In this document: one piece after another, positions 3,412-58,434 of the stretch
How the letters are laid out: each line of letters opens with the position of its first letter
Numbering within the stretch: the stretch's first letter is position 1
Source: Promethearchaeota archaeon
GTDB taxonomy: Archaea > Asgardarchaeota > Hermodarchaeia > Hermodarchaeales > Hermodarchaeaceae
Direction: 5' to 3'
NCBI GenBank assembly: GCA_048938385.1
Contig: JBHLMG010000001.1
Span: 64,001 to 128,000, forward strand
Length of the DNA stretch: 64,000 nt
Made by a program: the position numbers and the translations under genes
The notes under the pieces: generated by a model
What the model saw: the letters and a program-made list of their open reading frames with translations, nothing else
Databases searched by the model: none
What the model was told of the DNA's origin: nothing

Positions 3412-3570
3412 TGGTAGCCCGGCGCGGATTCGAACCGCGGTCCCGGGGTGACTTCGCTGTTTAACAGTGAACAGCACCAAAGCCCCGGATGAATAGTCAC
3501 GAGTTCCTATGTGGGTAACCCGTTTGACCACTTCATTACCTCAGTAGCGAGGCAACTACACTACCGGGCT
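3412..3570 (-). tRNA. tRNA-Gln(UUG) with three introns (approx. 3531-3555 in D-arm, 3493-3523 at 21/22, 3450-3476 at 37/38); CCA encoded
   Basis: Removing 25+31+27 nt gives a 76-nt cloverleaf AGCCCGG-TA-GTGT-AGTGGTCAA-TCAT-C-CGGGG-CT-TTG-GA-CCCCG-GGAC-CGCGG-TTCGAAT-CCGCG-CCGGGCT-ACCA; A1-U72 is typical of archaeal tRNA-Gln; clean BHB at 37/38 (CTTT/GAAG). Confidence 0.9.
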
Positions 3571-19322: not shown

Positions 19323-19442
19323 GGGCTCGTAGCTTAGCCAGGCAGAGCGTCGGGCTCTTAAGCATTCATTATGGAGACACCCGATTGTCGGGGGTTCGAA
19401 AGAACGCAGTTAGCGTCGCCGAAACTCCCCCCGAGCCCGCCA
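19323..19442 (+). tRNA. tRNA-Lys(CUU) with two introns (19361-19378 at 37/38; 19401-19425 at 59/60); CCA encoded
   Basis: Acceptor GGGCTCG/CGAGCCC, anticodon stem TCGGG/CCCGA, T-stem GGGGG/CCCCC; splice-motif helices CTCT/GGAG and TTCG/CGAA. Confidence 0.93.
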
Positions 19443-53549: not shown

Positions 53550-53717
53550 GAAGCCTTGCTCCTTGTGAGGGCTCGGTTTGTCTGACTTACGCCTGTGTGC
53601 ATATATTGGTTTCGTTCCTCAGGAAGTTTTCTGCTTGGTTCATTAATTTCGCCCAATGATTTTTATGGAGCTGAAGGTTGTAAGGTGCAAGCTAATTCAC
53701 TCGGAGTGCTAACAGAA

Positions 53718-56690
53718 ATGCCAGTTTCCGAAATTCCCAAACAATTCGATTTACCCTCCTTAGAAGAGGATGTACTTCAGTTTTGGCAAGAAAACCAGGT
53801 ATATGAGAAGATCACCGAACAACTCCTTGATCGTCCAATCTTCCAATTCCTTGACGGCCCTCCTTACACCACAGGTTCCATTCATCTCGGAACCGCTTGG
53901 AACAAAATTATGAAAGACTTGGTTTTACGGTTTCACCGGATGCAGGGCTTCCGTGTAATAGATACTCCGGGTTTTGATATGCACGGGTTACCAATTGAAG
54001 TCCATGTAGAAAAAGCTCTGAAAGTTAAATCGAAGCTAGACATTGAAAACAACATTGGCGTAGACAAGTTTATTGAACGATGTCAGGATTTTGCCCTCTT
54101 AAATTTGAATGAGATGACGCAGCAATTCAAACGCTTAGGCGTTTGGATGGACTGGGACCGACCGTATCGGACAATTGACAACCCCTACATTGAGGGCACT
54201 TGGTATTTGATGAAAAGGGCTTCGGAGAAGGGCTTTCTATACCGTGGGCTCCGATCTATAGACTGTTGCATACGATGTGAGACCGCCCTCGCCAAACGCG
54301 AGCATGAATACAAGACAATTGAAGATTATTCGATTTGGGTTAAGTTTCCTGTTTCAGGAAAACCCAACGAGTTTATTGTGATTTGGACTACAACTCCTTG
54401 GACACTACCCGCAAATATGGCTGTAATGGTCAACCCCGAATTCGAATACATCCGAGTAAAGGTTGACGATGAAATATGGATACTAGCGAAGGGGCTAGCT
54501 AACATCATATTACAGGGTCTGTTAAACAAACAATACGAGGTTATAGAGGAGGTCAAGGGAAAGGCGCTTTTAGGGCTTCGTTACGAACATCCCCTGTTAA
54601 AGGAGGTTCCCAAACAAGCAGACTTCCATAACACCTCAAAGAAAGTACATTCCATTGTATTAAGTGAAGAATATGTGACGCTTGAACAAGGGACTGGACT
54701 CGTCCATATGGCTCCTGGACATGGTCCCGAAGACTTCGAGGTGGGCCAGCGTGAAGAAATACCTATCTTCTGCCCTGTGACATTCTCAGGGACTTTCACC
54801 GAAGCGGGTGGAAAATACTCAGGAATGAAAGTTCAAGATGCTAGCGAAGTTATTCTGACCGACCTACGCAAAAAGAACCTCTTAGTTCATCAGGATACGA
54901 TTGAGCATGAATACGCGCACTGTTGGCGTTGCGGCTCACCCTTAGTATACCTTGCTACTGATCAGTGGTTTCTTCGTGTAAGTGATTTACGAGAAGAAAT
55001 CATAAAAAAGAACGAAGGGATTTACTGGGTTCCAGATTGGGCTGGTCACACTTGGTTTCGTAACTGGGTTCAGAATCTTCGAGATTGGTGCATTTCAAGA
55101 CAACGGTATTGGGGGGCTCCTCTCCCAATCTGGATTTGCGATAAGTGTGAGCAAATTGAGGTCGTTGGTAGCGTAGCTGAGTTAAAAGAGAAAGGAGAAA
55201 AAGTCCCTGAGAACCTCCATCGACCTTGGATTGACAATATCATGTGGCCTTGCTCAAAATGTGAGGGCACAATGAAGCGAGTGAATGATGTCTTAGATGT
55301 GTGGTTAGATAGTGGTGTTGCACCCTGGGCAACTCGTTGGGCCACCTATGGCACGACGGACTTTGACAATTGGGTAACGGCTGACTTTGTAATTGAAGGG
55401 AAAGATCAGATCAGTAACTGGTTTAACACTCTCTTTAACTCGACAATGCTTGTTGATAATAGAGAACCATACAAGCGAGTCTACATGCATGGATTTACAG
55501 CCGATGAATTCGGTCGACCTATGTCAAAATCAAAAGGAATTGGCGTCATGCCCGAAGAGGTGGTGGCGAAATTTGGTGCTGAGACGCTACGAATGTACTG
55601 CATTAAAAGCACTGGACCGGGTGAAGACATGACTTTTCTCTGGAAAGATGTAGAAGATACTCGTCGATCTCTCTCCATTCTTTGGAATGTTTATGTCTTT
55701 GCTACGACATTCATGAAAGCCGCAGGTTTCGTTCCTAAAATTCAAACAATTTCAACCAAGGCGTTGCAGAACGAAGACCGTTGGATTCTTTCGCGATTGC
55801 ACCAAATGCTTCAAGAAGTTACCAATCGCTTTGAGAAATACGAACTGCCCTTTGTTCCACGCCTAATGGACGATTTTGTTGTCCGCGACCTTAGTAGGTG
55901 GTATATTAAACTTATCCGATCACGAACATGGGTTAGCTCTACCGACGATACAAAAACACAAGCCTTTAACACCCTCTATTATGTGTTGAGAAGCCTTCTT
56001 GCGATACTTGCTCCAGTTCTTCCCTTCCAAACAGAAAGAATGTACCAAGCTCTCGTTCGCTCCGTTGAACCTGATGCCCCTCTGAGTGTTCACATGCTTC
56101 CTTGGCCGAAGGTCGATACAACGCTAATAGATGTCCAATTAAACCAGGAAATGGATTGGGTTTCAGAAATCGTAGATGCTGTACAATTCATCCGACAAGA
56201 AGAGGGATTGAAACTTCGTTGGCCGTGTAGCCGTCTTGTGATAGTTCCCTCGAAGAAAGAATTCTCCTTGGAGAATTTCAGCGAAGTGGTTGCTAGTCAA
56301 ACTAATGTGAAGCTGGTTGAAATTAAAAATAGAGTGAAAGGTGACAATCTAAAAGAAAAGGAACTTTCCTTTGCTACGGTATACCTTGATGTTTCTGAAA
56401 CAACTGAACTTCGCGCAGAGCGCTTATCTCGTGACCTTATTCGTAGAATTCAAGCAACTCGTAAGAAAGAAGGTTTACATGTTACTCAGCGAATAACGCT
56501 CTATATAGCGGCGCGCCCTCAAAAACTACGAGAAGCCATAGAAGAAACAAGGGCGGCTATAGCATCAAAGGTTGGTGCAACAAAATTAGAAGTGAGCGAT
56601 AAATTACCTCTCCTAGACGGACTCGCTAAGGGTAAGCTTGATTTTGACAACGAGAACATTGAATTCGGTATTTTGCGCAATTCCAAGTAG
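53718..56690 (+). CDS. ileS: isoleucine--tRNA ligase, archaeal/eukaryotic type (start likely ATG 53718)
   Basis: DGPPYTTGSIHLG, DMHGLPIE, WTTTPWTLP, GTGLVH, DWCISRQRYWG, PMSKS; SD GGAGTG before 53718. Confidence 0.96.
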   Translation: MPVSEIPKQFDLPSLEEDVLQFWQENQVYEKITEQLLDRPIFQFLDGPPYTTGSIHLGTAWNKIMKDLVLRFHRMQGFRVIDTPGFDMHGLPIEVHVEKALKVKSKLDIENNIGVDKFIERCQDFALLNLNEMTQQFKRLGVWMDWDRPYRTIDNPYIEGTWYLMKRASEKGFLYRGLRSIDCCIRCETALAKREHEYKTIEDYSIWVKFPVSGKPNEFIVIWTTTPWTLPANMAVMVNPEFEYIRVKVDDEIWILAKGLANIILQGLLNKQYEVIEEVKGKALLGLRYEHPLLKEVPKQADFHNTSKKVHSIVLSEEYVTLEQGTGLVHMAPGHGPEDFEVGQREEIPIFCPVTFSGTFTEAGGKYSGMKVQDASEVILTDLRKKNLLVHQDTIEHEYAHCWRCGSPLVYLATDQWFLRVSDLREEIIKKNEGIYWVPDWAGHTWFRNWVQNLRDWCISRQRYWGAPLPIWICDKCEQIEVVGSVAELKEKGEKVPENLHRPWIDNIMWPCSKCEGTMKRVNDVLDVWLDSGVAPWATRWATYGTTDFDNWVTADFVIEGKDQISNWFNTLFNSTMLVDNREPYKRVYMHGFTADEFGRPMSKSKGIGVMPEEVVAKFGAETLRMYCIKSTGPGEDMTFLWKDVEDTRRSLSILWNVYVFATTFMKAAGFVPKIQTISTKALQNEDRWILSRLHQMLQEVTNRFEKYELPFVPRLMDDFVVRDLSRWYIKLIRSRTWVSSTDDTKTQAFNTLYYVLRSLLAILAPVLPFQTERMYQALVRSVEPDAPLSVHMLPWPKVDTTLIDVQLNQEMDWVSEIVDAVQFIRQEEGLKLRWPCSRLVIVPSKKEFSLENFSEVVASQTNVKLVEIKNRVKGDNLKEKELSFATVYLDVSETTELRAERLSRDLIRRIQATRKKEGLHVTQRITLYIAARPQKLREAIEETRAAIASKVGATKLEVSDKLPLLDGLAKGKLDFDNENIEFGILRNSK

Positions 56691-56700
56691 TTCTCCCAAC

Positions 56701-56710
56701 ACATTTAAAC
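56701..56710 (+). promoter_or_regulatory. putative TATA box of tRNA-Ile
   Basis: TTTAAA at 56704-56709, 30 nt upstream of the tRNA 5' end. Confidence 0.5.
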
Positions 56711-56738
56711 CCAAATGAAACACGACCCTGTAATTAAT

Positions 56739-56884
56739 GGGCACGTGGCTTAGCCTGATGGAGCGCCGAACTACTACGCATACTGCGTGGTGTGTGTATG
56801 CCTTATATGGTGTCGCTCCGAACATTCAAATGCGAAACCTAGGTAAGCCGGAGGTCGCGGGTTTGAATCCCGCCGTGCCCACCA
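56739..56884 (+). tRNA. tRNA-Ile(UAU) with two introns (56769-56799 at 29/30; 56808-56845 at 37/38); CCA encoded
   Basis: Spliced: GGGCACG-TG-GCTT-AGCCTGATG-GAGC-G-CCGGC-CT-TAT-AA-GCCGG-AGGTC-GCGGG-TTTGAAT-CCCGC-CGTGCCC-ACCA; both introns have BHB-type motifs (helices GCGC/GTGT and CTTA/TAGG) with paired intron stems. Confidence 0.88.
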
Positions 56885-56892
56885 TCTTGCTT

Positions 56893-58434
56893 TTAAGCGG
56901 CTCTGCGTTTTCCTTCGAAATCCTTAGCCATGGTTTCAAAGTCTGTACCGAAAGCCGTTTCTTTAGTAAGACGCTTTCTCACCTTGAGAAAAACGGGAAA
57001 ACGTGTGGCTTGACCAACAACAAGCGCCTCTCCAACACTAAGGCTTGAAATAGAAGTTAAGGTGGCTTTGGTGATTTTTTCAGATGTAGCGCGAATATGG
57101 TCTAGATCGTAAGGATTGGTAATTCGGAGAAACACATTGGTCCCACATTGCGATAACACCGTTGTTGAGAGACGAACCGGTCGTTGCGAAATTACGCACA
57201 GAGATAAATTGTACTTTCGACCTTCGCGCGCAACCGTTTCAAGAATACCTTTCGAAAATGCCAAGGCACGACGGGCTTCAGGGCAGAATTGATGGCTCTC
57301 CTCGAGAAAGACAATTGTTGGTGGGATAACTGAATCACGTCGAAGGTCGAATAATCGGCGAAGTACGGCATCGACGATGATCTGTTTTTTCTGCAGATTT
57401 ACAGTGTCACTCATGTCGAGAATCACGGCATGACCAGGTTTCATCATCTTTTCCCAAATGGGTGTGGGGGTCTTACCGAAAAGCCGAAGGTTCTGAAGAT
57501 TGTCCAACCATCCTAAAAGGGCTTCTCGCGTTCGGGTGTTGATTGACGGGTCTTTTTCCAGTGCAGTGATGAGGTCACTAATATCATAAGGTTGCCCTTT
57601 GCGTGCACTTCGCATGGTATGGATTATTCGTGTGAGTTCACGAACCTGGATTGTCCCCATTTCGGGAGAGTAGGTGGCAAACGCTTTGGCGCTCATTTGA
57701 GGGGTAGCTATTTCGATAAGGGGACTCTTGATCATCGAGATTTGGTTCTCGAAGTTGCTTCCATGCTCCTCTATGGGTTCAGCTAGACTAGTGTACTCCC
57801 CGTGTACATCAATTACCAGAATGGCTGGTCGACCTTGGCTAGGTTTTCTCGAAAGTAATTCTTCGAGCATCACTGTCGCAGTGTAGCTTTTACCTGCCCC
57901 GCTCATTGCGAGTAAAGCAACATGCTTTTGAAACATTTTTGTTAAATCAAAGGTTGCAGGGATTCCGTGAAACATGAGTTGACCGAGAAGAACCCCGCCA
58001 GGCGTGAATCCAAGAAACTTCGACAAAATTTTAGGATCCGGTGTAGCTACAATGGCCCCGGGTGAGGGGGGAAATGTTACTCGTTGAACTTCTCCCTTGT
58101 TGTATATGCCAAGCGGCTTAGCCTCAGCAACCACATACTCCCACCGATCAATCGGAAAAATCGCTCCAAAAGCCTTGCCAGAACGAGTGAACTCGTGGAC
58201 CGCATCGATTTGAGCGAAGTAGCGATTGGTTTTGTAAACCTGCTCAATGTGGGCAATGACTAATCCTTCTTCGGTTTCCGTCGAGACATATTGTCCAACA
58301 TGAACTGGAATTCCATCCCTAATTGTTGGGTCATCCTGTTTTCCAATGACAAATACAACATTCTCCGTAGAAGGACCATTTTCTGTACAGACAACAGTTC
58401 CAAGGGGATTGGGATTCATTGTCAAGTTCAACAC
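56893..58434 (-). CDS. herA: HerA bipolar DNA helicase/translocase
   Basis: HAS barrel, HVALLAMSGAGKS, DVHGEY, EESH, AREGRKY, SQRP. Confidence 0.9.
   Translation of the reverse strand: MLNLTMNPNPLGTVVCTENGPSTENVVFVIGKQDDPTIRDGIPVHVGQYVSTETEEGLVIAHIEQVYKTNRYFAQIDAVHEFTRSGKAFGAIFPIDRWEYVVAEAKPLGIYNKGEVQRVTFPPSPGAIVATPDPKILSKFLGFTPGGVLLGQLMFHGIPATFDLTKMFQKHVALLAMSGAGKSYTATVMLEELLSRKPSQGRPAILVIDVHGEYTSLAEPIEEHGSNFENQISMIKSPLIEIATPQMSAKAFATYSPEMGTIQVRELTRIIHTMRSARKGQPYDISDLITALEKDPSINTRTREALLGWLDNLQNLRLFGKTPTPIWEKMMKPGHAVILDMSDTVNLQKKQIIVDAVLRRLFDLRRDSVIPPTIVFLEESHQFCPEARRALAFSKGILETVAREGRKYNLSLCVISQRPVRLSTTVLSQCGTNVFLRITNPYDLDHIRATSEKITKATLTSISSLSVGEALVVGQATRFPVFLKVRKRLTKETAFGTDFETMAKDFEGKRRAA

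Follow-up and report, generated by a model that had tools for sequence, protein, structure and literature searches.

A tRNA-Ile(UAU) gene with two introns directly behind ileS in a Hermodarchaeia archaeon

Most archaea read the AUA codon by way of TiaS, the enzyme of the agmatidine route. In eukaryotes, the gene for tRNA-Ile(UAU) has an intron at position 37/38, as does the gene described here, and Pus1 acts on the intron-containing precursor to form the pseudouridines at positions 34 and 36. The mature anticodon of the cytoplasmic eukaryotic tRNA-Ile(UAU) is psi-A-psi (PMC11685878, PMC6000648). Decoding of AUA by a UAU anticodon has already been published for eukaryotes, for the archaea ARMAN, Korarchaeum and Nanoarchaeum, and for Mycoplasma mobile. 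In ARMAN-2, -4 and -5 (DPANN) the tRNA-Ile(UAU) is interrupted at 37/38 by an intron with a strict hBHBh' motif, and both TiaS and tRNA-Ile(CAU) are absent; the ARMAN endonuclease, an enzyme of broad specificity, cuts pre-tRNA-Ile(UAU) in vitro (PMC3239211). Candidatus Korarchaeum cryptofilum and Nanoarchaeum equitans were the only two of 167 surveyed genomes to encode a tRNA-Ile(UAU), and the Korarchaeum gene also bears an intron (PMC6000648; PMC3575796). M. mobile has a tRNA-Ile2(UAU) and an IleRS with Arg865 (Taniguchi et al. 2013, PMC3575796). Asgard tRNA genes, for their part, have been reported to contain multiple BHB-type intervening sequences, many of them missed by standard annotation (bioRxiv 10.64898/2026.10.13.758758); that preprint gives Jordiarchaeia and Atabeyarchaeia as the richest classes, and its text is silent on Hermodarchaeia, isoleucine, UAU, TiaS and agmatidine. 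Our literature search found no paper joining Asgard archaea to tRNA-Ile(UAU) or to the loss of TiaS.

Here we describe a tRNA-Ile(UAU) gene that lies behind ileS, the isoleucyl-tRNA synthetase (IleRS) gene, in a 64,000-nt stretch of archaeal DNA (the window, to which coordinates refer unless a contig is named). The initial annotation had tentatively placed the DNA in an Asgard lineage, and the relatives of its IleRS do carry the name Hermodarchaeota. Like the ARMAN genes, this one combines a UAU anticodon with a strict hBHBh' motif at its 37/38 intron, in a genome where no TiaS was found. Unlike them, it has an Asgard host, a second intron at 29/30 and a fixed place directly behind ileS, and some of its relatives have D-loop or T-loop introns; splicing has been demonstrated in vitro for ARMAN and is predicted from the sequence for the Hermodarchaeia gene. 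With Korarchaeum and Nanoarchaeum it shares a genomically encoded archaeal UAU, but these belong to different phyla, have no reported ileS linkage and were described as species-specific gains, whereas the Asgard trait covers whole families. The likeness to eukaryotes extends to the UAU anticodon, the 37/38 intron, an IleRS of the archaeal/eukaryotic type and a C-terminal C domain that binds N34 via a conserved Arg, although eukaryotes additionally read AUA with IAU. The term "eukaryote-like", used in the initial annotation, holds as a statement of resemblance by analogy, and ancestry is not part of our result.

Gene structure, introns and conservation

The Rfam tRNA model (cut-off, 29 bits) matched the window at 56739-56881 (+) with 39.6 bits and an 80-nt insertion in the anticodon arm. 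ARAGORN, with or without its intron mode, made no call of the gene in either the window or the whole genome, in keeping with the earlier expectation that the double intron would hide it from standard tRNA finders or lead to mis-calls. A whole-genome Rfam search also lost the locus, at its first filter. Our own exhaustive intron solver, which excises BHB-bounded segments, three at most, and scores the cloverleaf that is left, returned a single best product that agrees with a manual reading of region 56600-57000. The three exons, the two introns and the neighboring ileS are listed in Table 1. The ileS ORF opens at a GTG, but most IleRS homologues align starting at Met42 of the ORF, so the ATG at 53718 is likely to be the true start; 48 nt separate the ileS stop from the tRNA gene.

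Table 1. Features of the ileS-tRNA-Ile(UAU) locus in window coordinates.
Feature	Position	Strand	Basis or remark
ileS ORF, 1031 codons, archaeal/eukaryotic-type isoleucyl-tRNA synthetase	53595..56690	+	opens at GTG 53595
IleRS Leu1015 codon	56637..56639	+	column Trp/non-Trp splits by TiaS
tRNA-Ile(UAU) gene, including CCA	56739..56884	+	Rfam, manual reading, solver
Exon 1, tRNA positions 1-29 (acceptor 5' strand, D arm, start of anticodon stem)	56739..56768	+	invariant in 12 aligned genomes
Intron 1, 31 nt, position 29/30	56769..56799	+	relaxed BHB, covarying internal hairpin, invariant 3' end GTGTGTA
Exon 2 (GCCTTATA), 8 nt, tRNA positions 30-37	56800..56807	+	invariant in all relatives; both flanking intron bases vary
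Anticodon TAT (UAU)	56804..56806	+	manual reading, solver; no variant in contigs of four runs
Intron 2, 38 nt, canonical position 37/38	56808..56845	+	strict hBHBh' motif; homologue in every ileS-linked tRNA-Ile(UAU) found
Intron-2 nucleotides 7-12 (CGCTCC)	56814..56819	+	complementary to tRNA positions 21-26 (GGAGCG, 56760-56765)
Exon 3, tRNA positions 38-76 (anticodon-stem 3' strand, variable loop, T arm, acceptor 3' strand, A73, CCA)	56846..56884	+	manual reading, Rfam, alignment

The spliced product is 77 nt long and forms a canonical cloverleaf in which U8, A14, U33, a purine at 37 and the T-loop residues U54, U55 and A58 are all present. The seven pairs of its acceptor stem (GGGCACG/CGTGCCC) and the anticodon stem (CCGGC/GCCGG) are complete, the D arm (GCTT-AGCCTGATG-GAGC) has a 4-bp stem that includes one G-U pair, and the T arm (GCGGG-TTTGAAT-CCCGC) has a 5-bp stem. 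The anticodon loop reads CUUAUAA, with U33 and A37, and is accompanied by A73 and by a CCA encoded at 56882-56884. The paired cloverleaf, its anticodon, A37, A73 and CCA, the two-intron structure and its coordinates, and the 48-nt gap had all been read in the initial annotation, and all prove correct; the sequence confirms a real isoleucine tRNA gene with anticodon UAU. The tertiary pair 19-56 is A19-U56 (window 56757 and 56864) and not the usual G19-C56, a pair that has been swapped and not lost, with A19 coming from the D loop AGCCTGATG and U56 from the T loop TTTGAAT. In yeast, the C-terminal B domain of IleRS contacts G19 and U20 of the tRNA (PMC11685878).

Both introns had been described as bounded by BHB motifs, and the two differ in how well they fit that description. 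With the register set so that the third-last intron base is the partner of position 32, the motif around the 37/38 intron is a strict hBHBh': C32, U33, U34 and A35 pair with TAGG (56840-56843), both bulges are 3 nt (U36-A37|U and U-A|A38), the inner helix has seven of eight pairs, and the anticodon stem serves as the outer helix. The 29/30 intron has a relaxed motif only, with a central 4-bp helix between GCGC (positions 24-27) and GUGU that contains two G-U pairs, no outer helix, and an inner hairpin with a one-base bulge. It is in competition with the D stem and does not appear in the minimum-energy fold of the unspliced precursor.

The weakness of the 29/30 motif, together with its absence from the minimum-energy fold, could suggest that the gene is a relic, either a pseudogene or one that is never correctly spliced, with AUA being read in some other way. 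The conservation of the locus argues otherwise. Of the 19 genomes of the family that were sampled, including the source genome, 17 have the tRNA-Ile(UAU) gene, and it lies behind ileS with identical exons in 15 named relatives, namely those with an available ileS 3' flank. In an alignment of 12 genomes with the same intron layout, whose IleRS proteins are 75-82% identical, exon columns are 100% invariant while the bases on either side of the 8-nt exon vary. In this alignment both partners have changed at six pairs of the intron-1 hairpin, and 96.9% of the hairpin cells are paired, as opposed to 29-50% with slid partners. A relic would not be expected to keep its exons identical while IleRS differs by about 20%, nor to have introns that drift yet stay paired, and the encoded CCA and every stem are intact.

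Relatives with a different intron layout provide a further view of the 29/30 site. In one of them, L014, the 29/30 intron is absent and CGCCGGCCTTATA is read without interruption, the gene being split by D-loop and T-loop introns instead; we take this as direct evidence, at the sequence level, of the predicted 29|30 exon junction. The junction is likewise uninterrupted in L019, L020, L021, L024 and L079, and in two other relatives, L016 and L022, the T loop is split by a third intron. Because of the identical exons, the covariation of the hairpin and the uninterrupted junction of L014, the 29/30 intron motif is more than a product of chance. Metagenome contigs from four sediment runs, which may include the source sample, differ from the window solely inside the introns and in a compensatory pattern. 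Position 56804, the first base of the anticodon and the one on which the UAU reading turns, never varies among them.

The genome also has the genes that splicing would call on. Two EndA-family splicing endonuclease genes (PF01974) lie at C23:325049-325303 and C23:190407-190667, in frames of 188 and 219 aa, and an RtcB ligase gene lies at C23:204997-206307. Two-subunit splicing endonucleases have a broad substrate specificity and accept relaxed motifs. Most of the decoded tRNA genes of the genome have one to three introns, T-loop introns among them, and in most the non-canonical introns are comparable to that at 29/30; this agrees with the heavily interrupted Asgard tRNA genes described previously (bioRxiv 10.64898/2026.10.13.758758). 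The presence of both EndA-family genes, the intron content of the other tRNA genes, and the failure to find any other AUA reader among 44 located tRNA genes, even though AUA makes up 1% of codons, all weigh against a relic, which we consider very improbable. The gene is almost certainly functional.

Several other tRNA genes came to light in the course of this analysis. ARAGORN mis-calls several of the others: its "tRNA-Ile(aat)", for example, is false and lies inside coding sequence, and its intron-mode "tRNA-Stop(tta)" is actually a three-intron tRNA-Gln(UUG) at window 3415-3570 (-). A tRNA-Lys(CUU) with two introns (37/38 and T loop) at window 19323-19439 (+) was found by acceptor-stem scan only, being missed by ARAGORN and by Rfam at the gathering threshold. 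CCA is encoded after all 44 of the listed tRNA genes except two Leu genes, which have CCT.

AUA codons and the agmatidine route

That AUA is decoded independently of TiaS in this lineage had been proposed from the tRNA gene, and the wider genomic data uphold the proposal. The TiaS FLD model (PF08489) has no match in the source genome, which is 89.8% complete, in any of 18 genomes of the family, or in 14 named Hermodarchaeia genomes. The same search was positive in each of four archaeal controls, and it gave a match in 111 of the 201 genomes sampled across the phylum. With a full-length TiaS from a Baldrarchaeum genome as query, which carries all four TiaS Pfam domains, the source genome again gave nothing at E<=1. 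The family-wide absence (0/18) is a stronger argument than absence from a single genome that is 89.8% complete.

The AUA codon itself is in regular use. In 977 long ORFs its frequency is 10.65 per 1000 codons, which corresponds to 14% of Ile codons. Beyond residue 45, ileS contains 16 AUA codons, which across 75 homologues align with I (45%), L and V; their columns resemble those of AUU and AUC, not those of AUG, and Met is rare in them. Because the AUA codons align with Ile, Leu and Val in the same manner as AUU and AUC do, the alignment indicates that AUA specifies a branched aliphatic residue and not Met.

This bears on a possible reassignment of the codon. AUA is read as Met in many mitochondria, and UAU differs from the Met anticodon by one base, so one could imagine that the UAU tRNA carries Met or some other amino acid in place of isoleucine. 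The placement of the ileS AUA codons at Ile, Leu and Val positions is hard to reconcile with this, as is the linkage of the gene to ileS in six lineages. A73 and A37 are conserved in the tRNA, as are the N34-binding Gln and Arg in IleRS, and modeling indicates that this Arg can bond the 4-carbonyl of U34 (PMC11685878). We regard a different identity as extremely unlikely, the most improbable of the alternatives weighed here.

Of the 44 tRNA genes located in the genome, only two have a CAU anticodon. One, at C23:25226-25365, has an A1:U72 pair and a GGG/CCC anticodon stem and looks like an initiator Met tRNA; the other, at C23:189153-189301, has an ordinary G1:C72 acceptor end and is assigned to elongator Met by elimination. 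Both look like Met tRNAs, and the inventory holds no further CAU tRNA that might serve as tRNA-Ile2. This same inventory, from an 89.8%-complete genome, also lacks tRNA-Ile(GAU), Leu(CAA) and Arg(CCU); for tRNA-Ile(GAU), searches with anticodon-loop motifs (the first of which was far too permissive) and with T-arm motifs gave nothing convincing. Since three expected tRNAs were not located, the inventory is incomplete, and the statement that there is no third CAU tRNA applies within these 44 genes.

It could therefore be argued that TiaS and tRNA-Ile2(CAU) are encoded in the unassembled tenth of the genome and that tRNA-Ile(UAU) is a second, redundant reader of AUA, much as some bacteria carry both tilS and a TAT gene (PMC3575796). 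However, TiaS was found in 0/18 genomes of the family and in none of the 14 named Hermodarchaeia MAGs, compared with 40/43, 17/21 and 10/10 genomes in other families, and its independent loss by chance from more than 30 assemblies is implausible. In addition, the adjacent IleRS lacks the Trp that is found in the primary IleRS of every TiaS-containing genome. We consider a redundant decoder to be improbable, if the least improbable of the three alternatives, and tRNA-Ile(UAU) most likely reads AUA without agmatidine, as the genomic evidence suggests.

IleRS, linkage and a possible intron-2/D-arm helix

Absence of TiaS is widespread among Asgard archaea. Ninety of the 201 genomes sampled in the phylum are TiaS-negative, and seven families have no TiaS match at all: f1 (0/18), f2 (0/4), f9 (0/41), f12 (0/3), f15 (0/5), f20 (0/3) and f23 (0/3). 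Families f6 (40/43), f4 (17/21) and f21 (10/10) are TiaS-rich. The view that UAU anticodons are rare exceptions in prokaryotes thus needs to be modified within Asgard archaea, given 90 TiaS-less genomes. A tRNA-Ile(UAU) gene with a 37/38 intron was found directly behind ileS in five Asgard families, namely Hermodarchaeia, LC30 and Atabeyarchaeum (f12), Odinarchaeia (f2, a one-contig genome among them), Borr/Sif-type genomes (f15) and f20, as well as in one Undinarchaeota MAG. The synteny suspected from the single locus accordingly extends well beyond it. In an f23 genome (L148) a tRNA-Ile(UAU) is present and unlinked to ileS, and a search with the pattern RGCGCCGGCCTTATA recovered no tRNA-Ile(UAU) in the large TiaS-less family f9. 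Odin genomes also contain second loci that resemble the anticodon arm of tRNA-Ile(UAU) (AGCGCCGG[G/T]CTTATA), at G001:C1:119077-119091 and G013:C1:25040-25054; these lie apart from the ileS-linked gene and could represent either another tRNA of the UAU type or a relic.

An alignment of 82 IleRS proteins from genomes of known TiaS status revealed a signature that follows the presence of the enzyme. The Leu1015 column is Trp in 25/25 primary IleRS of TiaS-containing genomes, which span many Asgard families, Bathyarchaeia, methanogens, Hadarchaeota and Culexarchaeum, whereas 53 TiaS-less genomes have L, I, V, F or K there. One 1.2-Mb MAG that has no TiaS match retains the Trp. This Trp lies near the IleRS C-terminus in the motif [DE]W[DK]I[DE] (L086-L104 and L071-L082 compared). 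Of four Thermoproteota MAGs without a TiaS match, three retain Trp and one has Tyr; the TiaS misses in the three that keep Trp are probably assembly gaps. Four TiaS-containing Asgard genomes have a second, divergent IleRS paralogue without the Trp (L105-L108, in G123, G138, G003 and G015); these paralogues form a clade of their own, and no tRNA(UAU) adjoins any of them.

In total, 12 of 1353 columns separate the IleRS of TiaS-containing and TiaS-less genomes. Thr955, beside Arg956, is Met where TiaS is present and Thr or Ser in TiaS-less IleRS, and Lys992 is Glu in TiaS-containing genomes, while Gln953 and Arg956 are invariant with and without TiaS. In alignment to yeast IleRS, Gln953, Arg956 and Leu961 correspond to Gln996, Arg999 and Leu1004, which contact N34 from the C-terminal C domain (PMC11685878). 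The Leu1015 column falls in the same domain, which recognizes the wobble base; as our alignment to solved IleRS structures ends before this column, Leu1015 is placed by domain and not by distance to N34. An excess of group-specific columns after the KMSKS motif was not significant (P = 0.12).

A possible parallel is provided by M. mobile, where, as appears to be the case in Hermodarchaeia, the C34-modifying enzyme has been lost, a UAU tRNA is used instead, and IleRS is without a Trp that is conserved where the enzyme is kept. In TilS-less Mycoplasma it is the wobble-stacking Trp that is replaced (PMC3575796), which by analogy may parallel the archaeal Trp column. Unlike the Hermodarchaeia case, however, M. 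mobile is bacterial and its tRNA is intronless, and its wobble-stacking Trp belongs to a zinc-binding domain, one that archaeal IleRS do not have.

The IleRS tree places the TiaS-less proteins in a single 52-row clade with a support of 100, and the Trp and TiaS traits each need about two changes on it, giving two independent pairs only. The association between Trp and TiaS therefore rests on about two events, for which no statistical test is possible. The suggestion that IleRS is co-adapted with the UAU tRNA gains some support from the linkage across classes and from the group-specific positions in the wobble-recognizing domain, and we treat it as a supported hypothesis.

Within the tRNA gene, a second helix can be drawn between intron 2 and the D arm. 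Intron-2 nucleotides 7-12 are complementary to GGAGCG at positions 21-26, a stretch made up of the D stem's 3' strand and position 26. Among 20 distinct rows, this register is paired in 98% of cells, as opposed to 15-59% in other registers; some rows were retrieved with a pattern that favors pyrimidines at nucleotides 7-12, and the first seven lineages were found without it. Compensatory changes occur at three of the six pairs, with AAAGCG/CGCUUU in Atabeyarchaeum, AGAGCG/CGCUCU in Odin and GGGGCG/CGUCCC in f15, and the register is identical in all ileS-linked tRNA-Ile(UAU) lineages (L019, L020, L021, L024, L079 and L116-L138). Such a helix would compete with the D stem.

Proposed role of the ileS-tRNA pair

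We think it highly likely that this gene encodes the AUA-reading isoleucine tRNA of a Hermodarchaeia archaeon and that it replaces the tRNA-Ile2(CAU)/TiaS route. According to this proposal, the precursor would be transcribed with both introns, the two-subunit endonuclease would cleave at the strict 37/38 BHB as well as at the relaxed 29/30 one, and RtcB would ligate the three exons. The resulting 77-nt tRNA, with its UAU anticodon and A37, would receive isoleucine from the IleRS whose gene ends 48 nt upstream and would then pair with AUA, standing in for tRNA-Ile2(CAU) and the agmatidine made through TiaS, both apparently lost family-wide. If U34 were unmodified, or carried an xm5 modification, one would expect it to read AUG too. 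Misreading of AUG might be avoided with a bare U34, as in M. mobile, or with pseudouridine, as in eukaryotes. In this scheme we infer transcription, the order of splicing, charging with isoleucine and the avoidance of AUG misreading.

We also put forward, tentatively and with some doubt, a broader reading, in which ileS and tRNA-Ile(UAU) form an old, co-adapted two-gene module that replaced TiaS and tRNA-Ile2(CAU), and in which the conserved 37/38 intron pairs with the D arm for some step of maturation, such as an intron-dependent treatment of U34. It draws on the adjacency of the two genes in five Asgard families and an Undinarchaeote, on the single IleRS clade, and on remodeled columns of the wobble-base pocket in that clade, where Trp has given way to Leu, Ile, Val or Phe (1015), Met to Thr or Ser by the N34-binding Arg, and Glu to Lys (992).

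Discrimination between AUA (Ile) and AUG (Met) is one of the few points at which the chemistry of the three domains differs. What is new here is the ileS-tRNA(UAU) linkage in five Asgard families and an Undinarchaeote, the TiaS-less IleRS clade without Trp, and the covariation of intron nucleotides 7-12 with the D arm. The gene very probably brings an entire Asgard class into the small published set of archaea that use a UAU tRNA, and not agmatidine, to read AUA, and, with 90 of 201 genomes being TiaS-less, the UAU "exception" appears to be common among the archaeal relatives of eukaryotes. The locus offers a natural side-by-side pair of IleRS and tRNA-Ile(UAU), along with a short list of IleRS residues that split agmatidine users from UAU users, and the intron adjoining the anticodon has been retained in every ileS-linked lineage. 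Multi-intron tRNAs that escape the common finders can make a genome seem unable to read AUA.
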